Shown here: piece by piece, positions 25,722 through 49,358 of the stretch | Layout: each line of letters opens with the position of its first letter | Numbering within the stretch: position 1 is the stretch's first letter | Assembly: GCA_965220165.1 (NCBI GenBank) | Contig: CBDCPJ010000054.1 | Coordinates: 385,708 to 449,707, forward strand | Direction of reading: 5' to 3' | Source of the DNA: Spirochaetia bacterium | Lineage (GTDB): Bacteria > Spirochaetota > Spirochaetia > G963692905 | Length of the DNA stretch: 64,000 bases | Notes under the pieces: generated by a model | What the model saw: only the letters and a program-made list of their open reading frames with translations | What the model was told of the DNA's origin: nothing | Databases searched by the model: none | Made by a program: the position numbers and the translations under genes

Positions 25722-25945
25722 GGATGGTTTGGGCGTTGCGGGCTATTTGCTGGGCGTTTGGAAATGCAAGAATTGCCGCCCGCTGAGGGGGGTAGCGTAA
25801 TAGCGCGGAGCGCTATGGAGCGAGGGGGGAGACAGCGATGTTCTTACCGTTCTCCGGTAGATAATCCGCGCTCCAATGTGTTCGTATCGCGCATATGCGA
25901 GGCTTCGAGCATATGCGTTGGTCGCAATCGCCCTCCCCCCCCCCC
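25722..25945 (+). repeat. Intergenic dispersed repeat, copy A (G6/C-run-bounded structured element)
   Basis: GGTTTGGGCGTTGCGGGC ... GAGGGGGGTAGCGTAATAGCGCGGAGCGCTATGGAGCGAGGGGGGAGAC ... CCCTC11. Matches the copies at 38479-38740 (reverse orientation) and 49028-49198. Confidence 0.7.
25931..25945 (+). repeat. Homopolymeric tract CCCTC11 (poly-G on the minus strand) about 95 bp upstream of the response-regulator start
   Basis: Direct reading of the sequence. Confidence 0.9.
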
Positions 25946-26039
25946 ACAACTTTATATTCTATCAATGGTATTTCATTGACATATCGGTCTATAGTGTCTA
26001 CGTTTGTGTGTAGTATGCTAACAATAGCGGGGAGGCGCA

Positions 26040-31698: not shown

Positions 31699-33261
31699 TT
31701 ATTGGTCTGACTTCTCTATAATCTGCTCTAAACTTATATTCGGCTTGTTGCTCAATACAAGACCGTCGACACGTATAGCGGCCGGCCTTAAATACAACGC
31801 GCGAATGACGCGCTCGTTAATCTCCCGCTCTTCATAGGTCGCTTGATAGACTCGTGTATCGATCATAAGGCCGTTATCGTCGAAGAGCGTGATTTCCAAC
31901 ACTTCTTGGTCGATGCGATAGAAAACATAACTCCCTCGCAATTGGCGATCGGAATCGGAAATCGCCACGTTTGATCCATCGAAATAGAATTCCAGCCCAT
32001 TTTCATTGGTATAGAGCCCTTGCGCAGAAATGGACGACGCAAACGCGACCGATCTACGAGGAATAGATTCCGATGTGTCCAAAGGAAAATAGACTCCGTC
32101 CCATTGATCTGTCTCTCGTATCGAAATACGCACGCCGCCATCTACGCTGGAAACGGTAACGTTCATTCTTACATTGGGAAGAACGCTATTTGCGGCGTTG
32201 ATCAATAAAATAGGGCCGTCGCGGAGATAGAGCAACCGAGAACTATTCCAATTATAGATCTCTTGAAACGTCCCGCGCAGAAGATCGATGGAACGTTGCA
32301 GAGAATCGAAAAAAATTATTGCGCCCTCCCGCTCGTCCCCTCCCCCATCTATTTGGGCGCGCCATCGCCCCGATAAGAATTGCTCAAAAGTCTCTTTGGT
32401 AGCGTTTCTAAGATCGTTTAGCTGCTCCGCGCGAAGATCATTCTCCGTTATTTGTTGCGTCTCATGCTCGACAAACGCGCCGTCTGTTTCTTGCCATTGA
32501 TATATCTGGCGCGTAAGAACAACTTGAAGGCCTTCAACATCGGGCTGTCGCTCATGGCGTTGGTAGGATACGACCGAAAAGGGTCTCCCGTTAAGCCCCA
32601 AATTATAGAGCCGTTCGCGCTCCGCTTGCTCGATTTCTTGCCCGCCATTTGATTGCAACTGCCCAATAGAAAGATAATTGATATTTCTAAGCAATTGATT
32701 GGTCGAGCGTTTAAATATATCCAGAGTATGTTGCCCCTCCGCAGAGACGCCAAAACAGGCGATTTCTATGCTGTGATCTCCGGTGATGTCCATAAATTCG
32801 ATGGTGAACGCCCCGCTATTGCTTGCTTGAGTAACACCCTCCCAAACAAAGCGCATCTCGTTATAGTCGGGGTCGTAATCCGCAAAAAACAAACGAATGC
32901 GGTCATCGAGCGCCTGATCGCGTTTAAATACAACTATCTGCTCCTCTTCTTCGTCCTCGTCAAGATTGATGTCATACACATCGAGCGCGCTGTATTCCTC
33001 GGGAAATGCGGCAATACGGATCGACGCTTCGATAGATTGAGCGATTTCGTCATTTGAAGGCGCTATGCCATATGCCCCTAATAACATTGTATCTTCGCCC
33101 GCGATAGGAACGATATGAAGCGCGCCCGCAGAATTAATTTCGCTTTCGCGATTGCACGACGCGAACATCGCCAGCATAAGAAATATCCCTATCAATGCCT
33201 GGAAAACGTTAATTGGAGCCCGATAGGCAGGCGTTTCGAAAAATATAAAATATTGCGCCAT
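31699..33261 (-). CDS. Hypothetical lipoprotein
   Basis: 520 aa; signal peptide with lipobox LAMFASC; no recognisable domain. Confidence 0.55.
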   Translation of the reverse strand: MAQYFIFFETPAYRAPINVFQALIGIFLMLAMFASCNRESEINSAGALHIVPIAGEDTMLLGAYGIAPSNDEIAQSIEASIRIAAFPEEYSALDVYDINLDEDEEEEQIVVFKRDQALDDRIRLFFADYDPDYNEMRFVWEGVTQASNSGAFTIEFMDITGDHSIEIACFGVSAEGQHTLDIFKRSTNQLLRNINYLSIGQLQSNGGQEIEQAERERLYNLGLNGRPFSVVSYQRHERQPDVEGLQVVLTRQIYQWQETDGAFVEHETQQITENDLRAEQLNDLRNATKETFEQFLSGRWRAQIDGGGDEREGAIIFFDSLQRSIDLLRGTFQEIYNWNSSRLLYLRDGPILLINAANSVLPNVRMNVTVSSVDGGVRISIRETDQWDGVYFPLDTSESIPRRSVAFASSISAQGLYTNENGLEFYFDGSNVAISDSDRQLRGSYVFYRIDQEVLEITLFDDNGLMIDTRVYQATYEEREINERVIRALYLRPAAIRVDGLVLSNKPNISLEQIIEKSDQ

Positions 33262-33358
33262 CGATTATTATACCATATTGATTTATATGCAAAATAGATA
33301 TACTATCGCGACATAATACCTACCCATTGTATTGATAGCAAGCGGGCGGAGAAAATTT

Positions 33359-34912
33359 ATGGAGGAGATAATGAATCGTTCAAGTATAATTATATTTATT
33401 GCAATTTTTTTTGTCGCTTTTCCCCTTTTCGCTATTGACGTAAATCGCGATGAGCTTATTCAGGCTGAGGATATGACAATCGAGTTCGAAAACTACGCCG
33501 GTCCTCAAGATGTTATTTCTAGCGTCGAGGCAATTCGGGGAATAGGCGAAGGGTTAGGAGAAGAGGAAAATATCCCAGGCGCTCGCTATAGTTACGCTGG
33601 GCGATATGATATTATCCATGCGTCGGATCCCGATAACAAGACACTGCTTAACGCGGATATTTTAATCCTAGGCGAGGCGGCTCGCGTAGATCATATCGAC
33701 AACCTGCGTCGCATTATTAGCGGATATATCGAAACGGCGTACGATTACCGACGAGGCGATGCCGATCTTCTCGCGACGCTTATAACGATATACAACGCCA
33801 TCTATCGCGGACAATACGACTTTTTTTCGCAACGTTATAGTCAGTTGGTATTGGACAATATTAGCCCGGAACAGGTGGGATTGCCGCTCAGCTATCGAGA
33901 ATGGCCGGGGCAATCGGAAATTGTCATCCCCTTGGCTCCCGGAGAGACTATCCCCGGATCGTTAAATACCGTCGACATACTACAACTCACCGATAAACAG
34001 GTGCGCGAGGATCTTAGCGCTCGCGAGGATAGAGCGATAACAGAGCGACAGGCGACGGTTGATCTTCTGGAACGATTGGTCGACGAGCTACAAGACGAGA
34101 TTGATACCACGCAAAATAGGACAGTCGATCAAATAAGAACTCTTGACGAAGAGGAGCAGGCGATCGTCCAGCAGCTGAGTGACATCGAGCTTCTTCGCGA
34201 ACAGCTGGAGAGCGACGGCGTAGACGAAGAGGAACTTCAACAGATCGAAGAGTTGCAGACGCAAGAAGAAGCGCTTAAATCGCAACAAGAGGAGGTCGTC
34301 GCCGAACGCGAACAGACAATTGAAGAACAGCAACAGAGAATAGCCGAACTAACCGCGGTCATTCGCGACGAGAGGAGCGAAATAGCCGAAGATCTCAGCG
34401 CGGATCCCGATCTAAGAGCGCCAACGATTCTATTTCCGAGAGTTGTTGTCGGCATTGATGGAAGAGAAACGACGTTGGTAAGAATTGACGCCGCGACAGG
34501 AGAGGTCATAAGACGATCAAGCAACCTCCGTATTATCAGCAGAGATTATACCATCTGGCAATCTGATATTATTGTGGCGTCGCTCAACGAAGATGGAACG
34601 AGGGTCAATCTCGTCGCGCTTGACCAAGAGACATTTGAGACGAGACGATTTTCGGACGCGGCGACACATCCCGACGGGATAATCGTTATAGCCGACGATA
34701 AACTATACACCGCCGTAGACATTGACGGGGAGTGGCACCTAGGCCTATTTGACAACCAACTGCGAATGATTGGTCAATCGTCCGTTACCATCGACCCCAA
34801 CACAGCCATTCTACTCAACCTAGGAATTATCTACGTGCAGGCTATAGATGGACGCGTTATACTCCTTGATGCCGATAATCTAAGCAATGTCGGCGCGGCC
34901 GGCGGCGCATAG
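33359..34912 (+). CDS. Hypothetical secreted protein with a central acidic coiled-coil
   Basis: ATG at 33359 with a GGAG 8 nt upstream; signal peptide; a Glu/Gln-rich heptad region (residues about 230-330); beta-rich C-terminus. Confidence 0.55.
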   Translation: MEEIMNRSSIIIFIAIFFVAFPLFAIDVNRDELIQAEDMTIEFENYAGPQDVISSVEAIRGIGEGLGEEENIPGARYSYAGRYDIIHASDPDNKTLLNADILILGEAARVDHIDNLRRIISGYIETAYDYRRGDADLLATLITIYNAIYRGQYDFFSQRYSQLVLDNISPEQVGLPLSYREWPGQSEIVIPLAPGETIPGSLNTVDILQLTDKQVREDLSAREDRAITERQATVDLLERLVDELQDEIDTTQNRTVDQIRTLDEEEQAIVQQLSDIELLREQLESDGVDEEELQQIEELQTQEEALKSQQEEVVAEREQTIEEQQQRIAELTAVIRDERSEIAEDLSADPDLRAPTILFPRVVVGIDGRETTLVRIDAATGEVIRRSSNLRIISRDYTIWQSDIIVASLNEDGTRVNLVALDQETFETRRFSDAATHPDGIIVIADDKLYTAVDIDGEWHLGLFDNQLRMIGQSSVTIDPNTAILLNLGIIYVQAIDGRVILLDADNLSNVGAAGGA

Positions 34913-35053: not shown

Positions 35054-38000
35054 TTATTCTAAAAGAGCTTCGTTGATTGGCTCTGAGATTGGCTCTGAAA
35101 GCCCAGAATTAGAAGGCTGAATTATTCTCGCCCTGCTAATAATAACCTCGTTGGAAGCCGGCGCTTCGGCATCAGACTCATCATCTGGCTCGTCGAGCTG
35201 TTCCGCGTTGTCGTCGACTACGGGGACGATCAGATTATCGGAAGCCCCCTCAATATCGGATAGAACGCCCAGTCCATCGGCAGGATCTCCGTAATCGACG
35301 ACGCCCAGCCAATCGACGACGCCCAGTCCATCGGCAGAATCTCCGTAATCGACGACGCCCAGTCCATCGGCGGAATCTCCGTAATCGACGACGCCCAGTC
35401 CATCGGCAGGATCCCCGTAATCGACGACGCCCAGTCCATCGGCGGAATCCCCGTAATCGACGACGCCCAGTCCATCGGCAGGCTCCCCGTAATCGACGAC
35501 GCCCAGTCCATCGGCGGAATCCCCGTAATCGACGACGCCCAGTCCATCGGCAGGATCTCCGTAATCGACGACGCCCAGTCCATCGGCGGAATCTCCGTAA
35601 TCGACGACGCCCAGTCCATCGGCAGCCCAGTCCAATCTCCGTAATCGACGAATAATCGACGACGCCCAGCCCATCGGCAGGAATCCCCGTAATCGACGAC
35701 GCCCAGTCCATCGGCAGGCCCGTAATCGACGACGCCCAGTCCATCGGCAGGAATCCCCGTAAATGGCGGGATCAGCGGCAAAATAGTTTGAGAGCCCAGT
35801 CCATCGGCTTTGCGTTTGCGCTTCCGCGTAAATGGCGATTTGCGCAAAATGCGTTTGCGCTTGCGCTTGCGTTTGCGCTTGCGTTTCGAGCGCCCCTTGC
35901 CGCTCGCCAGCGCCGACTATATCGTCCGATTCGCTAACTTCCTCGACCTCTTGGTCTCCGAGAAAAGACAACGCGGCAATATCTAGCTCCAATTCAACCG
36001 TCTGAAGATTGCTACTCAACCGCTTCACGAGGCCTTGCCGTCGCTCCTGTTCGAAACTATACAGCGTATCGTATTCGGTAGGCTCTGTATTCTCAATAAA
36101 TACCTCGGTTCTTACCCCCAACTCATAGCTCGGTGGCGGCAACAGGCCCGTGCGAGTCGCAATTTCATTGTAGACAATACCTTCGGCCGGCGGCACAAAC
36201 TCTCTGCGAGATAAATTCTTATGAATTTCACTCATATATTTTGCCCAGATAGGGCCTGCCGTTACGGCGCCCGTTTGATTTGTGCCCAACGAGTTGTTCC
36301 CTCCGCGATCAAATCCAATCCATACAGCCGTGGTGTAATAGGGAGAAAATCCCACAGTCCATGCGTCGCTCCAATTTTGGGTAGTGCCGGTTTTGCCAGC
36401 CACAGGAGAGGTAAACCCCCCGGCGATATTCTTAGCGTATCGCAACGTGCCAGAATTTACCGTCGACTGAAGAAGATCGGTCATAACATAGGCGGCTTGC
36501 GGACTAATAATCTGTCGCTCTTCAAGCGTCTGCTCTATCTCTTTTTGCCTCTGCTGTCGAAGATCGAGCACAATTTTGCCATTTTTATCCTCTATATAGA
36601 GAATGGCAAAGGGATCCACCAAAACGCCATTATTGGCAAATGTCGAGTATGCCTGCGCCATTTCGATGGGAGCCAATTCAACAATTCCAAGCCCCACCGG
36701 GTATCGACGCACCAAATTGCGGCTCAGCATATCCTCCGCGGGAATGCCAAGAAGACGGCGCGCTGTGGTAAGGGAATCGTCAAAACCCACCCGCTCGAGC
36801 ACTCGCAAACTGGGCACATTCATCGAATTGGCCAACGCTTGACGCGCCAAAACCGGACCGTGCCAGACGCCTTTGTAGTTCTCGGGCGTGTAGGCGGTGC
36901 CGTCTTCGTTCCAAAACACAACCGGCGCGTCGTAGATCATCGTCGCGGGAGTAATAACGCGCTTATCGATCGCGGCGGCATAGTAGAGCGGCTTAAAGGA
37001 CGAGCCCGGCTCCATCCTTCCGTCAATGGCTCGATTAAATTGGTTGCGCGATTCGAATTTGCTCCCGCCAATCATACTCAAGATATTGCCCGTCCCATTC
37101 TCCAATGTGACTAGCGCCCCCTCGACAATGGTTCGCTGCGCCTCGCGGCGATTGGCATCCAACGAGGCCTTGGTAATATCTCGAAGATCGCTCGATTCGC
37201 CGCGCGAGAACAGAAGAGAGATCATTTCCATCGCCGGCGCGATCTCCGTATTGTAATAGCGCTTGGCATCCCTGCGAATAGGAGCGTCCGCCGCGTAGAT
37301 ATCGGGGATATTAAACGCCAGCGCCAGCGCGTCGACCATGGCGATATATTCATCTCCCCCGCTCACTCTCCGATTATTATTTCGTTGGTAGATACGGTTG
37401 GCGTCTTTGAGCCCGTCGCTTATATGTCGCCGCGCCGCCTGTTGATATCCCAGATCGAGCGTTGTGCGCACCACAAACCCGCCGGTGTTGATATTATTAT
37501 TGCCCAATAGATAGCGATTCTCCAAAAGATATCGCACATATTCGCTAAAATAGGGAGCCAAATCATCGCGCTCGAAAAATGCGGTCGAGGTATTGGCTCG
37601 CGTGAAATCATAGCTCCCCCAATATTCGTTAAACGACTGATCCGCCTCCGCTCTTGACGTGTAGCCCAATTCAACCATTTGGTCGAGCACCGTCCGCTGA
37701 ATTTTGCGCGCGTTATTGGGATTGCGAATAGGGGAATAGATCGTGGGATTAGCCAGCTGGATAACCAGCATAACCGATTCGGCAAGGGTAAGATCGCGCG
37801 CGGAGTGGCCAAAAAAGAACTGAGACGCCGCCTCTATTCCATAGTTGCCGTGGCCAAAAAACATCGTATTGAGATACTTCTCCAGAATCTCGTATTTCGT
37901 CCAGTATCGCTCGACATGGTATGCCCACCAGAGCTCTTTTATCTTGCGCGAAATCGTAATTTCGCTACGATCGGCGTAGAGATGCCCCGCCAGTTGCTGT

Positions 38001-38449
38001 GTCAACGTGCTTCCGCCAGAAAAATAGCTATTGGTTATTTGATTCCAGATAGCGCGCGCCGTCCCGCGAACGCTAAATCCATTGTGTTGGAAAAATGTGC
38101 GATCCTCTCGAGTAATCAGCGCGTTGATCAGGTGGCGAGGGAGGCTGTCGATCGAAATAAGATCGCGCTTCTCTTCGGCGAAGAATTTGGTGATGAGCGC
38201 GCCGTGCCGATCGAGCACTTGGGTGGGAAGCGCCGCGGGCGTCGCCGCCAAAAGGTCGCTCTCGTCGATATTGTATACCGAGGCTATCCCAATGCCGGCG
38301 ACACCGCCGATGCAGATCATCGCAAGCGCGCAGAGAATCCAGAGCAACGCCCTCCATTTAGATGCTACACTTCGCATAGCGCAATGCTTATCATCATCGC
38401 CCGCCCTTGTCAATGCAAAAGATCGGCCATTGTTAGACCAAATCTCCAC
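35054..38449 (-). CDS. mrcA: Class A penicillin-binding protein (PBP1A: GT51 transglycosylase plus transpeptidase) with an approximately 300-aa repetitive C-terminal extension
   Basis: 1131 aa; N-terminal TM; GT51 motifs (EDRTFFQHNGF, GGSTLTQQL); transpeptidase SxxK-like and KTGT motifs. The tail contains (ADGLGVVDYGDS/P)n. Confidence 0.88.
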   Translation of the reverse strand: MEIWSNNGRSFALTRAGDDDKHCAMRSVASKWRALLWILCALAMICIGGVAGIGIASVYNIDESDLLAATPAALPTQVLDRHGALITKFFAEEKRDLISIDSLPRHLINALITREDRTFFQHNGFSVRGTARAIWNQITNSYFSGGSTLTQQLAGHLYADRSEITISRKIKELWWAYHVERYWTKYEILEKYLNTMFFGHGNYGIEAASQFFFGHSARDLTLAESVMLVIQLANPTIYSPIRNPNNARKIQRTVLDQMVELGYTSRAEADQSFNEYWGSYDFTRANTSTAFFERDDLAPYFSEYVRYLLENRYLLGNNNINTGGFVVRTTLDLGYQQAARRHISDGLKDANRIYQRNNNRRVSGGDEYIAMVDALALAFNIPDIYAADAPIRRDAKRYYNTEIAPAMEMISLLFSRGESSDLRDITKASLDANRREAQRTIVEGALVTLENGTGNILSMIGGSKFESRNQFNRAIDGRMEPGSSFKPLYYAAAIDKRVITPATMIYDAPVVFWNEDGTAYTPENYKGVWHGPVLARQALANSMNVPSLRVLERVGFDDSLTTARRLLGIPAEDMLSRNLVRRYPVGLGIVELAPIEMAQAYSTFANNGVLVDPFAILYIEDKNGKIVLDLRQQRQKEIEQTLEERQIISPQAAYVMTDLLQSTVNSGTLRYAKNIAGGFTSPVAGKTGTTQNWSDAWTVGFSPYYTTAVWIGFDRGGNNSLGTNQTGAVTAGPIWAKYMSEIHKNLSRREFVPPAEGIVYNEIATRTGLLPPPSYELGVRTEVFIENTEPTEYDTLYSFEQERRQGLVKRLSSNLQTVELELDIAALSFLGDQEVEEVSESDDIVGAGERQGALETQAQTQAQAQTHFAQIAIYAEAQTQSRWTGLSNYFAADPAIYGDSCRWTGRRRLRACRWTGRRRLRGFLPMGWASSIIRRLRRLDWAADGLGVVDYGDSADGLGVVDYGDPADGLGVVDYGDSADGLGVVDYGEPADGLGVVDYGDSADGLGVVDYGDPADGLGVVDYGDSADGLGVVDYGDSADGLGVVDWLGVVDYGDPADGLGVLSDIEGASDNLIVPVVDDNAEQLDEPDDESDAEAPASNEVIISRARIIQPSNSGLSEPISEPINEALLE
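35262..35770 (-). repeat. About 10 tandem copies of a 39-bp unit inside the PBP1A 3' region, encoding a 13-aa DGLGVVDYGDxA repeat; distal copies are degenerate and out of register
   Basis: Direct reading: the unit acgacgcccagtccatcggc(a/g)g(a/g)at(c/t)(c/t)ccgtaatcg recurs head-to-tail. Shadow ORFs 35230-35847 and 35250-35744 are the same repeat read in other frames. Confidence 0.9.
35806..35895 (-). repeat. GCGCTT/GCGTTT hexanucleotide microsatellite encoding a (TQAQ)n segment of the PBP1A tail
   Basis: gcgtttgcgcttgcgcttgcgtttgcgcttgcgtttc read directly. Confidence 0.85.
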
Positions 38450-38478
38450 AGCTCAAATAAAATATAAGGCCGCTCCGT

Positions 38479-38740
38479 TGGGAAGGGGGGAGATAGTCCG
38501 CAAGCGAGGCGTCTATCTCTATCGTTTCGCAGCCCGAATGCGTCGCGATGACCCGACAATCGCCGTCTCCCCCCTCGCTCCATAGCGCCTTCGCGCCGAA
38601 CGGCGCGAACCGCGTCCGCCTCTTCGGGCTCCACTCGCGCTCCGCCCTGACGGCCGCTGGCGCTATTGCGCTACCCCCCTCGTCGGGCGAAACGACGAAA
38701 TTATGCGCGCCGCGCCCTCCAAGCGTCGCCCGATAAGCCC
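38479..38740 (-). repeat. Intergenic dispersed repeat, copy B (reverse orientation), between the argS stop and the PBP1A start
   Basis: Its reverse complement reads ...GACGAGGGGGGTAGCGCAATAGCGC...GGAGCGCGAGTGGAGC...GCGCTATGGAGCGAGGGGGGAGAC...TCTCCCCCCTTCCC. Confidence 0.7.
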
Positions 38741-38741
38741 A

Positions 38742-40463
38742 TTACATGCGATCCAGCGGGCTAATATTAATCATATCCAGGCCATTGCATAAGACTATCC
38801 TCGTCGCGCGAGCCAACGCCAATCGAGCCGTTCGCAATTGACGATCGTCGGCGGTGGCGATAGGGTTGCTTTGATAGAAACGCGAAAAAGATCGCCCCAA
38901 ATCGTAGAGATACCCAACAAGCGACGAAACATCCATGGCGATAGCCGACCGCTCCACTTGTTGGGGGAATTGGCCAAGAATATAACATAGTTCCCACTCA
39001 TCGTCGGAGGCGAGCAGTTCGAAATCGCAGTCAAACGTTTCGCCCTCGTCGCCAGCCCGTCGCAGTATGCTGGCTATCCTCGCGCTGACATATTGAAGAT
39101 ATGGACCGGTGTCGCCGTTGAACGAAAGCGATCGTTTGGGATCAAATATTATATCGCTCGCGGGATTAAACTTAAGAAGATAGTAGTGCACCGCCGCCAG
39201 CGCAATCGCCTCCGCCGAGTCCAACGAATCGTCGGTCAATTGACGCGAGCGTATCTCTTCTTTAGCCAAATCGGTCAATGAATCGAGCAACCAATCGGCA
39301 TCGACGACGACTCCCTCGCGCGATTTCATCTTGCCCTCGGGAAGATGCACCATCCCGTATGAGAGATGATGAAGATGATTTGCCCAAGAATAGCCTAGCA
39401 TCTTCATAACATGGAAAAAAACCTGAAAATGGTAGCGTTGCTCCGACGCGACCACATAAATTAGCTTATCAAATGGCCAATCCTCGCGGCGACGAATGGC
39501 GGTTCCAATATCTTGCGTAAGATAGAGCGACGTCCCGTCGCCGCGAAGCAGTACCTTGCTATCGAGGCCAATATCGCCAAGATCGACCATAATAGCCCCG
39601 TCGTCGGATCGATAAAAACATCCCTTGCGAAGACCTTGCGACACGGCCTCCTTTCCCTCGCGATACGTATCGCTCTCCAAGTCGATCCTATCAAAAGATA
39701 TGCCCGTGCGACGGTAGGTCTCTTCCATGCCTTTGATAGCCCATTCGTTCATTTTCTTCCACAGGGCTCGCACGGTGTCATCTCCGCGCTCCCACGCCCT
39801 TAGCATCTCGGATGCCTCGTGTTCGGCGCTTGGATATTCCTTGCTCCAGCGAGCAAATCGCATATACCACTCTCCAACGAAATGATCCGGCTTTTTGCGC
39901 GCCGTCTCGGGAGTCTCGCCATTGCCAAAACGGCGATAGGCGCTCATTGATTTGCATATATGGATGCCTCGATCGTTAATGAGATTGGCGGAGCGCGTTT
40001 CGGCCCCCGCCGCGCGCGAGACGCGCGCGAGACTTTCGCCGATAATGTTGTTGCGAAGGTGCCCAAGGTGAAGCGGCTTGTTGGTATTGGGGCTGGAAAA
40101 TTCAATCATAATCTTCCGCCCTCGCAACGCGTCGCCATGGCCAAAACGCTCTCGTTCCGATTCGACCGCGCGAAGAAGACGGCCAATGTAGTTACGGCGC
40201 CCATAGCGAATGTTTAAATAGGGTCCAGCGCTTGTCGCGCCTCCCCATTCATCGTCGGGCAACAGTTTGATAAGAGCCTGCGCGATACTCTGGGGCGATT
40301 GACGAAGCGGCTTCGCGTAGGGATAGAGCGGGAATGAGAGATCGCCGAGCGATCTATTGGGAGGAGTTTCAGATGCTACGCCATCAAGCAAATCGATTTC
40401 CGGAGACAATTGACGCAACGCCTCTTTTACCCGGCGTTGCCAAAGATCAAGGAATTGCCGCAT
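38742..40463 (-). CDS. argS: Arginine--tRNA ligase
   Basis: 573 aa; class I HIGH region PNTNKPLHLGHLRN; C-terminal DALR anticodon-binding region. Confidence 0.9.
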   Translation of the reverse strand: MRQFLDLWQRRVKEALRQLSPEIDLLDGVASETPPNRSLGDLSFPLYPYAKPLRQSPQSIAQALIKLLPDDEWGGATSAGPYLNIRYGRRNYIGRLLRAVESERERFGHGDALRGRKIMIEFSSPNTNKPLHLGHLRNNIIGESLARVSRAAGAETRSANLINDRGIHICKSMSAYRRFGNGETPETARKKPDHFVGEWYMRFARWSKEYPSAEHEASEMLRAWERGDDTVRALWKKMNEWAIKGMEETYRRTGISFDRIDLESDTYREGKEAVSQGLRKGCFYRSDDGAIMVDLGDIGLDSKVLLRGDGTSLYLTQDIGTAIRRREDWPFDKLIYVVASEQRYHFQVFFHVMKMLGYSWANHLHHLSYGMVHLPEGKMKSREGVVVDADWLLDSLTDLAKEEIRSRQLTDDSLDSAEAIALAAVHYYLLKFNPASDIIFDPKRSLSFNGDTGPYLQYVSARIASILRRAGDEGETFDCDFELLASDDEWELCYILGQFPQQVERSAIAMDVSSLVGYLYDLGRSFSRFYQSNPIATADDRQLRTARLALARATRIVLCNGLDMINISPLDRM

Positions 40464-47899: not shown

Positions 47900-48867
47900 A
47901 TATTGAGAGCCCCTTCGACAGCGAGGGGTTCAATTTCGGCAAGCTCCTCCGGACTAATTTCGAGCCGTTTGAGCGCGGCGATATTTTCCGCGAGCTGTTC
48001 CGCGCGGCTTGCGCCGATCAGCGAAGAGGTGACGCGTTTGTCTCGCAACGTCCACACGATGGCCAACTGCGCGAGAGTCTGCCCCCTTTTCCGCGCGATG
48101 GCGTCGAGGGCCGATACCCTTCGCATGTTTTCTTCCCGAAGAAATTTCTTGCTAAAGAATTCCGGCGCCGTCTTTGCCCTCGCGTCTTCGGGGATGCCGC
48201 CGAGGTAACGGTTGGTAAGCAATCCCTGCGCAAGCGGAGAAAAGACGATGCATCCCATGCCCGATCGCTCAAGCTCATCCAAAAGCCCCTTCTCGATCCA
48301 GCGATTGAAAAGAGAATAGGATGGTTGATGAATGAGGCAGGGCGCTCCCATCTCGCGCAACAGGCGGGCGGCTCGCGCCGTCTCTTCGGGGGGATAGGAA
48401 GAAATTCCAACATAAAGAGCCTTGCCCTGCTTGACCGCGCTGGCTAACGCGCCCATTGTCTCTTCGAGCGGCGTTTTGGGATCAAATCGATGCGAGTAAA
48501 AAATATCCACATAGTCTAGGCCCATACGGCGAAGGCTCTGATCGAGGCTTGAGAGAAGATACTTTCGCGATCCCCACTCTCCATAGGGGCCGGGCCACAT
48601 ATAATATCCCGCTTTTGTCGATATAATGAGCTCGTCGCGATAGGGACGAAGATCAGAGGCCATAACGCGCCCAAAATTCTCTTCCGCCGACCCGGGCGGG
48701 GGGCCGTAATTGTTGGCCAAATCAAAATGGCAAATGCCATGGTCGAATGCCAAAAAGAGCATTTCGCGAATCGCGCTCATCGACTGCAGACCGCCAAAAT
48801 TATTCCATAAGCCGAGCGATATTACCGGAAGTTGTATTCCGCTTTCGCCGCAACGGCGATAAACCAT
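47884..48867 (-). CDS. Aldo/keto reductase (YghZ/Kv-beta-like)
   Basis: Likely start MVYRRCGESGIQLPVISLGLW (ATG at 48867; the ORF track extends to 48921). AKR catalytic tetrad context present. Confidence 0.8.
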   Translation of the reverse strand: MVYRRCGESGIQLPVISLGLWNNFGGLQSMSAIREMLFLAFDHGICHFDLANNYGPPPGSAEENFGRVMASDLRPYRDELIISTKAGYYMWPGPYGEWGSRKYLLSSLDQSLRRMGLDYVDIFYSHRFDPKTPLEETMGALASAVKQGKALYVGISSYPPEETARAARLLREMGAPCLIHQPSYSLFNRWIEKGLLDELERSGMGCIVFSPLAQGLLTNRYLGGIPEDARAKTAPEFFSKKFLREENMRRVSALDAIARKRGQTLAQLAIVWTLRDKRVTSSLIGASRAEQLAENIAALKRLEISPEELAEIEPLAVEGALNIWSSE

Positions 48868-49027
48868 CTCAGAACTATAACGTTTTATATTTGGTAGATA
48901 AATCATACGGTATTGTATCATATTGGCGCGGTCGTCTCAATACAATTAGCGCGCGCTCTGCTCCGCGGCGAATGATATACGACCCAGTGACGGTATATCG
49001 CTCTATTGGCGGAGCGTTGCTTTGTAG

Positions 49028-49198
49028 AATGGGTTTGGGCGTTGCGGGCGTCGCGCTGATCGATCTACTATTGAGGGATGTCGCCCGCAGAGGGGGGAGC
49101 GCAATAGCGCAGGGGCGAGCCCAGCGGAGCGCGAGCGGAGCTGGATCAGCGCGCCCCGATCAGCGCTATGGAGCGCGGGGGGAGACTTCCCCCTTCTC
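49028..49198 (+). repeat. Intergenic dispersed repeat, copy C, in the divergent aldo/keto reductase / hisD promoter region
   Basis: GGGTTTGGGCGTTGCGGGC...GAGGGGGGAGCGCAATAGCGC...GGAGCGCGAGCGGAGC...GCGCTATGGAGCGCGGGGGGAGACTTCCCCC. Confidence 0.7.
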
Positions 49199-49358
49199 TT
49201 TTTATGGGCGAAATAAATAATTTTACAATTATAGTTTATGAGAAATGCGCCGACATTTATAATGGCTGTCCTGTCGGCGCAGTTCCCCTCCCAGTTTCTG
49301 CGTCGGCAACCAGCCTTTTTTTGTTTTTTGCGCGGCTCCATTTGCCGGCGCCGCGATT

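Follow-up and report, generated by a model that had tools for sequence, protein, structure and literature searches.

The spacer between argS and the PBP1A gene examined here lies within a stretch of 64,000 nucleotides (64 kb; hereafter the window) from contig CBDCPJ010000054.1 of a Spirochaetia bacterium (assembly GCA_965220165.1). Most of this spacer is occupied by copy B, one of three copies (A, B, and C) of a repeated, hairpin-forming element found in the window. The gene argS encodes an arginine--tRNA ligase of 573 aa (38742-40463, minus strand), and downstream of copy B lies a class A penicillin-binding protein (PBP) gene (PBP1A, mrcA; transglycosylase plus transpeptidase; 35054-38413, minus strand). 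Copy B (38480-38741, minus strand) is co-oriented with both genes and comprises a 5' module, the hairpin P1, the block M1, the hairpin P2 with an insert, the block M2, the hairpin P3 with its loop, and a C-run tail. Its homology to copies A and C begins at AATGGG, which overlaps the TAA stop codon of argS (38744-38742), so that the stop codon itself overlaps the first bases common to the repeat copies. The original prediction, made from the sequence alone, had described a repeat copy in reverse orientation that carries all modules and abuts the argS stop codon, and each of these statements was borne out.

Two start codons are called for PBP1A: TTG 38413 (1119 aa) in the gene call of the 834-kb source contig, and ATG 38377 in the gene call of a second assembly (ENA ERZ25072490), a 54.8-kb contig that is 99.9% identical to the window, lies wholly within it, and provides, through gene calls and Pfam assignments, the identity of the neighbouring genes. 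No record was found for a 1131-aa PBP product from GTG 38449, the first start codon of the longest open reading frame (ORF). Because the start is 38413 or 38377, copy B as delimited occupies 72-80% of the argS-PBP1A spacer, and 66-102 nt separate its end from the start codon; it had been thought to fill the spacer entirely and to end about 30 nt upstream of a start at 38449, and both figures need correction. The GC content is 0.615 for the spacer and 0.676 for positions 38480-38741, while intergenic DNA of the window averages 0.461 and the whole window 0.494. The remaining AT-rich spacer (38414-38479, minus strand), between copy B and either PBP1A start, holds TTATATTTTATTT, a weak hairpin followed by a T-run (38441-38423), an ATGG at 38430, the same word as at the 5' boundary of the element, and a TTGACA.

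Along the minus strand, P1 begins 8 nt past the argS stop codon (38683-38733) and has an 8-bp closing stem in which TCGGGCGA (38733-38726) pairs with TCGCCCGA (38690-38683). Block M1 (38660-38681; GAGGGGGGTAGCGCAATAGCGC) contains the first G6 run and the 5' arm of P2, with AATAGCGC at 38667-38660, and is followed by the 71-nt insert of the P2 loop (38589-38659), where copy A has GGA. Block M2 (38565-38588; GCGCTATGGAGCGAGGGGGGAGAC, 24 nt) provides the 3' arm of P2, a linker, the second G6 run, and the 5' arm of P3; GCGCTAT lies at 38588-38582 and GGGGGGAGAC at 38574-38565. A 71-nt segment (38564-38494) leads to TCTCCCCCC (38493-38485) and TTCCC (38484-38480). The P3 domain as a whole (38484-38575) is closed by the stem AGGGGGGAGA/TCTCCCCCCT, in which 38575-38566 pair perfectly with 38493-38484 around a 72-nt loop. 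The closing stem originally given as G6AGA/TCTC6 is thus perfect and actually 10 bp in length, and the insert and segment given as 70 and 73 nt are correct to within 1-2 nt. The stem is followed by TTCCCAACGGAGCGGCC (TTCCCAACGG), not by a T-tract, and TTATATTTTATTT comes only after this.

Copy A (approximately 25724-25945, plus strand) has a DUF4340 gene (end 25667) before it and a response-regulator gene (start 26040) after it, both on the plus strand; its P2 has a 3-nt loop, its P3 is formed by GGGGGGAG/CTCCCCCC around a 101-nt segment, and it ends in a C11 tract. Copy C (approximately 49029-49205, plus strand) occupies the spacer that separates two divergent genes, one for an aldo/keto reductase (start 48867, minus strand) and the other hisD (start 49359, plus strand). 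Its P3 is shrunk to a GGGGGGA/TCCCCCT stem around a loop of 4 nt, after which comes TCTCTTTTT. All three copies have in common the near-identical blocks GAGGGGGG(T)AGCGYAATAGCGC and GCGCTATGGAGCGNGGGGGGAGAC. M2 (GCGCTATGGAGCGAGGGGGGAGAC) was found at 25810-25833 (plus), 38565-38588 (minus), and 49163-49186 (plus, one mismatch), with 0.00 occurrences expected in shuffles. M1 (GAGGGGGGTAGCGCAATAGCGC) was found at 25785-25806 (plus) and 38660-38681 (minus), these two being identical at 21/22 positions, and copy C carries a version with a 1-nt deletion. Overall, the M1 and M2 blocks are conserved at 95-100% identity. A repeat search and a blastn self-search (word size 7) revealed no further copies, and all three are extragenic; ORFs crossing them were not called as genes in a collection of 15 billion proteins. 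The copies are between about 177 and 262 nt long and have a GC content of 0.60 to 0.68, versus 0.46 for intergenic DNA. The three spacers that carry them (372, 364, and 491 nt) exceed every other genuine spacer of the window in length (median approximately 113 nt), and the flanking genes (DUF4340/response regulator, argS/PBP1A, aldo/keto reductase/hisD) are functionally unrelated.

The P1, P2, and P3 hairpin positions are present in all three copies, P1 being represented by GCGGGC/GCCCGC in copy A and TGCGGGCG/CGCCCGCA in copy C, while the loops vary in length and are partly of unrelated sequence. Homology was assessed module by module from Smith-Waterman scores against 500 shuffles. The 5' modules of A and C are homologous (score 42 versus 20.5 +/- 4.2, 0/500 shuffles as good), as are those of A and B (1/500 shuffles as good); the likeness between A and C is confined to an 18-nt 5' block and the 3' arm of P1, and their P1 loops of approximately 31 nt do not align. 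Homology also holds for the inserts that B (71 nt) and C (52 nt) carry in the P2 loop (score 36 versus 22.1 +/- 4.1, 4/500 shuffles as good), which open with a degenerate second M2 (GCGGAGCGCGAGTGGAGC) that is absent from copy A. The P3 segments of A (101 nt) and B (71 nt) are unrelated, with 57/500 shuffles scoring as well, and copy C has only its 4-nt loop at this place. As conserved blocks alternate with unrelated loops, the element is best described as a mosaic and not as the product of point-mutational divergence. MAFFT misplaced modules when aligning only three copies: GCGGAGCGCGAGYGGAGC of the insert resembles GCGGAGCGCTATGGAGCG of copy A, and the M2 of copy A was aligned to the insert.

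ATGG is found at each 5' boundary (25724, 38742, 49029) and once more 10-50 nt past each C-run (25965, 38430, 49204). The chance of this recurrence is approximately 0.25 per copy and 0.016 for all three, as a post hoc estimate. The word could be a target duplication of 4-5 bp or a target motif, giving longer elements at 25724-25968 (A), 38742-38427 (B), and 49029-49207 (C); if ATGG delimits the element, copy B reaches approximately 38427 and almost fills the spacer. The 3' flanks of A and B (25958-25981; 38437-38406, minus strand) both read TCTAWCAATGG...CATTGACA and contain a small CAATG/CATTG hairpin ending in TTGACA, a likeness that is not significant (39/500 shuffles as good). A promoter borne by the element at this TTGACA was considered and rejected for that reason and because the TTG in copy B is the called start codon.

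Each domain was folded alone and compared with shuffles (z). P1 folds at -16.5, -21.9, and -20.2 kcal/mol in A, B, and C, respectively. The corresponding values are -8.1 (z -2.9), -47.1 (z -2.5), and -35.7 kcal/mol (z -3.2) for the P2 domain and -51.1 (z -4.2), -36.4 (z -1.6), and -12.1 kcal/mol (z -1.7) for the P3 domain. The expected closing stem was obtained for every domain in all three copies, including the insert-bearing P2. Folding of the whole element was no better than that of dinucleotide shuffles, with z of -0.5 to -1.5 for the sense strand (-0.5 for copy B) and -1.7 to -2.3 for the antisense strand. Perfect inverted repeats of at least 9 bp within 130 nt are common in this DNA (87 nine-mer pairs in the window), and what gives the closing stem of copy B its weight is solely that A and C have this pairing at the equivalent place, with other loop contents. 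No covariation can be observed, since the P1, P2, and P3 stems are sequence-identical between copies. One P1 pair that might be compensatory (G-C in copies A and C, U-A in copy B) was downgraded, as the alignment is ambiguous and the 5' arm of B is perhaps not homologous. M1 and M2 can each form a local hairpin in place of P2 (GCGC-AAUA-GCGC and CGCU-AUGG-AGCG), GCGC being self-complementary, and the data do not discriminate between these structures and P2.

The stems of P1, P2, and P3 consist of Watson-Crick pairs only and would form equally on either strand or in DNA. This feature, together with the relatively better z of the antisense strand, also favours a role at the DNA level. The element would then offer a binding or structural site to a protein of the nucleoid or of DNA topology, in the way that IHF and gyrase are bound by BIMEs, or its G6 runs and palindromes would build a G-quadruplex or cruciform barrier, with any effects on RNA incidental. 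The blocks are conserved as sequence, beyond mere pairing potential; the RTAGCGC heptad occurs three times (two direct, one inverted), and two or three G6 runs lie on one strand. However, in C and B the halves of the TAGCGC-GGA-GCGCTA palindrome seen in copy A stand 52-71 nt apart, which spares a hairpin but not a dimer site in duplex DNA, and no candidate binding protein is known. A DNA-level role is considered unlikely.

The arrangement of conserved and variable parts also bears on the possibility that the element is a cis-regulatory structured RNA, working on the gene downstream of it as a 5' leader that is either riboswitch-like or bound by a protein. M1 and M2 would then be junction strands, the G6 runs would pair with the pyrimidine tail, the peripheral stems would vary, and a terminator would serve as the expression platform. 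Consistent with this, linkers and stem bases are conserved in sequence while peripheral loops vary in length, all three copies are co-oriented with the downstream gene (chance probability 1/8), copy C ends in a terminator-like hairpin and T-run with a second strong orphan terminator just before hisD (49264-49329), and the minimum free energy fold of C pairs the first G-run with the pyrimidine tail to enclose a multiloop. Yet the genes downstream (response regulator, PBP1A, hisD) are unrelated, neither a terminator nor a sequestered start follows the element in A or B, Rfam yielded no match, and the fold energy does not exceed that of shuffles and is relatively better on the antisense strand. 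The stems are identical between copies, and the lone variable P1 pair rests on an uncertain alignment; riboswitch copies that evolve independently have stems that vary and covary, and they serve a coherent regulon, which disfavours such an origin. Furthermore, promoter-like sequences in A and C, below the scan threshold, lie downstream of the element. A cis-regulatory leader is accordingly held to be as doubtful as a DNA-level role. A more specific proposal, that the copies represent an undescribed class of structured RNA with a multi-stem junction core (M1, M2, the G6 runs, and the 3' pyrimidine tail) and P2/P3 extensions of variable length, appears somewhat less probable still; as 5' leaders of unrelated genes, such RNAs could sense a global signal or a dedicated RNA-binding protein, and copy C with the orphan terminator before hisD could show a termination read-out.

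Signals for termination and promotion were sought around copy B, since the original prediction held that the element could act as a terminator or insulator for argS and as part of the mrcA promoter and 5' untranslated region (UTR), coupling PBP1A expression to its structure. As copy B is co-oriented with argS and starts at its stop codon, argS transcripts must enter it, and its three domains fold as predicted; these points favour the proposal. In favour of a plain intrinsic terminator of argS, copy B lies directly past the stop codon and is GC-rich and hairpin-forming, and P3 of copy C is terminator-like. In contrast, the three closing stems of copy B all lack a T-tract after them, its 262 nt are approximately ten times the size of a terminator, and copy C has no upstream gene to terminate. 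The minus-strand scan detected no terminator-like site within 38480-38741, and the only match nearby is the weak hairpin with T-run in the residual spacer. Terminator-like sites are not enriched over shuffles (24 versus 21.4 in the 20-40 kb part of the window), and P3 of copy C with its T-run scores as an intrinsic terminator although no co-oriented gene lies upstream. RNA with more G than C is a poor Rho-loading (rut) site, and the sense RNA of copy B, with G (39%) exceeding C (28%), is probably a poor Rho-loading substrate. Simple termination of argS is therefore regarded as quite improbable. As to the promoter part of the proposal, no sigma-70-like promoter was detected on the minus strand in or after copy B. 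Coupling to PBP1A likewise finds no support: the same element also precedes the response-regulator gene and hisD, and thus nothing ties it specifically to PBP1A. In its general form, an interpretation of copy B as terminator, insulator, or promoter is plausible; its specifics are unsupported.

The promoter scans also bear on whether each copy might be an independent gene of a multicopy small-RNA (sRNA) family. Copy C, in a divergent spacer where no upstream gene reads in, ends in a hairpin and T-run with a second terminator after it, and -10-like hexamers are present at the 5' boundary of C (TAGAAT) and B (TGTAAT). No sigma-70-like promoter, however, was found in the scan ahead of any of the three copies, and similarity between the copies starts only at ATGG, so that the repeat contains no shared promoter; the promoter for copy B would have to lie within the argS coding sequence, and A and B have no 3' terminator. 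An sRNA family is thus the least probable of the alternatives weighed here, and a structured cis-regulatory leader or an sRNA family, taken jointly, would still be unlikely.

Database searches provided no relative of the element. At the gathering threshold, Rfam 15 identified only two tRNAs in the whole window; at E <= 10, nothing was obtained for the spacer of copy B and only small nucleolar RNA and internal ribosome entry site noise for those of A and C. The exact M2 core GCGCTATGGAGCGNGGGGGG had four matches in 185,579 GTDB species genomes, all in unrelated metagenome-assembled genomes (MAGs), and the one inspected (L002) bore no likeness beyond the 19-mer. Two chance matches to the M2 core were present in JGI metagenomes, and the M1 and M2 cores had no match in viral contigs. 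A six-frame translation of all three copies, concatenated, which would reveal spurious ORFs annotated on further copies, yielded nothing at E <= 10 against 5.8 billion proteins, and a literature search for the core sequences was equally negative. The host is a deep-branching spirochaete whose best non-self arginyl-tRNA synthetase matches are 55-56% identical and derive from Spirochaetia MAGs. Its spirochaete origin is confirmed by the presence of adjacent homologues of Treponema pallilysin (PF18663) and Borrelia P83 (PF05262) at 31699-34912 of the window. In the nearest relatives by this synthetase, gltB and not a PBP gene follows argS, so that no orthologous spacer is available for comparison, and the repeat motif patterns are absent from those loci.

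Comparison of the window with the ENA assembly showed one single-nucleotide polymorphism in the P3 loop of copy B (38548 T>G), a C11/C12 difference in copy A, and none in copy C, which is the background level and uninformative. The difference in copy A concerns its poly-C tract (25935-25945, plus strand), approximately 95 nt upstream of the response-regulator gene, for which the window reads C11 but the ENA contig C12; it is attributable either to slipped-strand variation or to a long-read homopolymer error at 3.5x coverage.

Taken together, the evidence points, at somewhat better than even confidence, to copy B as belonging to a lineage-specific family of intergenic repeats that are GC-rich, mosaic, and hairpin-forming and that work like REP, BIME, and BOX elements without being homologous to them. 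The family appears to be new, as no description of it was found in the databases or literature searched. Its unit would consist of a 5' block followed by P1, P2, and P3 in series, with the near-invariant, G-rich M1 and M2 flanking P2 and opening P3, and its hairpin loops would tolerate or attract extra palindromic modules, including the second degenerate M2. Copies most likely spread and were reshuffled at the DNA level, through some form of transposition, recombination, or gene conversion, and they lie between transcription units, where insertions are tolerated.

The most likely consequence of copy B, by analogy with known repeats, would be passive and at the RNA level. Its orientation and adjacency suggest that it is transcribed as an argS 3' UTR or intercistronic segment, and co-transcription of argS and mrcA through the element is possible because no independent mrcA promoter was detectable. 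By analogy, 3'->5' exonucleases would be impeded by the three stable domains, which would thus protect the 3' end of argS mRNA. As P1 lies only 8 nt from the stop codon, it may interfere with ribosomes at termination, an effect that REPs close to a stop codon have in E. coli. Its position, again with analogy to such repeats, suggests that it might also lower read-through into mrcA. On this reading copy B is not a dedicated PBP1A regulator, and it could set the argS:mrcA expression ratio only as a by-product of a generic element.

Several observations weigh against assignment to a mosaic repeat family. The copies seen number three and all come from the 64-kb window, which encodes no mobilising enzyme (transposase, RAYT (Y1_Tnp), reverse transcriptase, and integrase were absent from its ORFs and gene calls). 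Terminal inverted repeats are not significant, the flanking direct repeat is limited to the 4-nt ATGG, recognized post hoc, and both assemblies carry all three copies, hence no empty site is available. The whole-element folding energies, no better than those of shuffles, count in the same direction, as does the orientation of all three copies with the downstream gene, which is not required of a neutral element.

If the classification holds, the element belongs to a dispersed family of mosaic hairpin repeats in an uncultured spirochaete lineage that branches deeply. Such a family would be of use in annotation, since it accounts for the three longest spacers of the window and warns against calling ORFs, promoters, or riboswitches there. 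The nesting of palindromic modules into hairpin loops may offer a handle on how repeats of this kind originate and are reshuffled. In copy B, a structure predicted to be very stable begins 8 nt past the point where an essential synthetase gene stops and lies ahead of the main peptidoglycan synthase gene.

Additional features were observed near the copies and their neighbouring genes. Within the PBP gene, a tandem array of approximately 12 copies of a 36-nt unit (35311-35762, minus strand) encodes ADGLGVVDYGDS-type units of a C-terminal extension. The number and arrangement of its units differ between the window and the ENA assembly, and the reading frame appears to switch within it (RWTGRRRLR stretches), suggesting an assembly error or real length variation. 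The orphan terminator or attenuator just 5' of hisD consists of a 16-bp GC-rich hairpin (49264-49315) followed by T7GT6 (49316-49329, plus strand) and ends 30 nt before the hisD ATG, with no co-oriented gene upstream. The 97-nt hisD leader (49262-49358, plus strand) folds at -41 kcal/mol (z -4.4), a perfect TATAAT (49256-49261) adjoins the 5' arm of its hairpin, and no His-rich leader peptide was seen in it. In the same spacer, a small hairpin with a T-rich tail (48999-49016, plus strand) lies just upstream of copy C. Ahead of the aldo/keto reductase gene is a sigma-70-like promoter with an extended -10 (TTGAGA-17-TACAAT, 10/12 matches; 48912-48940, minus strand), which supports a start at 48867 and not the longest-ORF start at 48921. 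Finally, the GC content steps from 0.40-0.48 (positions 1-24000) to 0.49-0.58 (24000-64000) near copy A.

The element was compared with the major classes of structured intergenic sequence. Functionally related downstream genes, covariation, and an Rfam family match, by which riboswitches are recognized, were not found among the three copies. Like SPRITE repeats and Rho-independent terminators, the 3' end of copy C has a G/C stem of 7 bp with a loop of 4 nt and then a T-rich tail, whereas A and B carry segments of 101 and 71 nt between the P3 arms with no T-tract, and the element is far larger. Copy C therefore has the structure of an intrinsic terminator, with no co-oriented gene upstream, and copy B does not. 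The MITEs (miniature inverted-repeat transposable elements), e.g. Correia, ERIC, and RUP, are likewise short, non-coding, structured, and dispersed, and can make or modify terminators, promoters, and RNase sites nearby. MITEs are defined by terminal inverted repeats and target-site duplications. The former were not found: comparison of the left 50 nt with the reverse complement of the right 60 nt was matched by 71/1000 (A), 821/1000 (B), and 134/1000 (C) shuffles. For the latter, the one candidate is the flanking 4-nt ATGG, with a post hoc probability of approximately 0.02.

Mosaic repeats built by recombination or transposition are known as bacterial interspersed mosaic elements (BIMEs) in enterobacteria and BOX elements in pneumococci (PMC3049150, PMC3733652). 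As with the repetitive extragenic palindromes (REPs) and BIMEs of enterobacteria and with GTAG- and CGTC-tagged REPs, the spirochaete element is extragenic, GC-rich relative to the spacers, and composed of palindromes in mosaics (PMC3733652, PMC12306157). REPs and BIMEs also often lie just 3' of coding regions between co-directional genes, and the roles proposed for them include mRNA stabilisation, attenuation, and translational effects within 15 nt of a stop codon. BIMEs are able to attenuate transcription, and transcripts can be stabilised by stem-loops at the 3' end (PMC3049150), while E. coli REPs at <=15 nt from a stop codon stall terminating ribosomes and lower expression (summarised in PMC12306157). 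Tagged REPs carry an unpaired GTAG or CGTC at one end of an imperfect palindrome. In A and B, a GTAG directly precedes GCGC-AATA-GCGC (GGGGGGTAGCG), but it is missing from copy C, which reads GGGGGGAGCG. A REP unit is a single palindrome of 20-40 bp, whereas the spirochaete element is a larger array of three hairpins; the GTAG-tagged palindrome of A and B has just 4 bp, and P2 has 7 bp around a loop of 3 to 71 nt. REPs mobilised by a RAYT number tens to hundreds per genome, outside genes, and flank the RAYT gene; the window holds three extragenic copies in 64 kb. CGTC-type REPs have 8-9-bp stems and 4-5-nt loops, and those reported in Spirochaetes differ in architecture from the element described here. 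No gene for a REP-associated tyrosine transposase (RAYT) was seen in the window ORFs or gene calls. The element was not filed as a strict REP, REPIN, or MITE because the tag and palindrome, RAYT, terminal inverted repeat, and target-site duplication features were not clearly recovered in the window.

The BOX elements of Streptococcus pneumoniae are modular intergenic repeats of the form boxA-boxB(n)-boxC (PMC3049150). There is no sequence kinship with the spirochaete element, which is G-rich with G6/C6 runs in a host of approximately 50% GC, and the terminal inverted repeats of BOX elements (ISSpn2-like; PMC3049150) were not found in it. BOX elements are co-transcribed with neighbouring genes, which for the spirochaete element is suggested only by its position and orientation. 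Both span approximately 100-300 nt with extensive predicted stem-loops, and both combine conserved terminal or core modules with a variable number of an internal module that folds independently, so that its number can change without disturbing the rest. In the spirochaete element, M1 and M2 are conserved while an extra degenerate M2-like module occurs in the P2 loop of B and C and none in A; because the P2 insert starts with this degenerate duplicate of M2, the number of modules varies in the manner of boxB.

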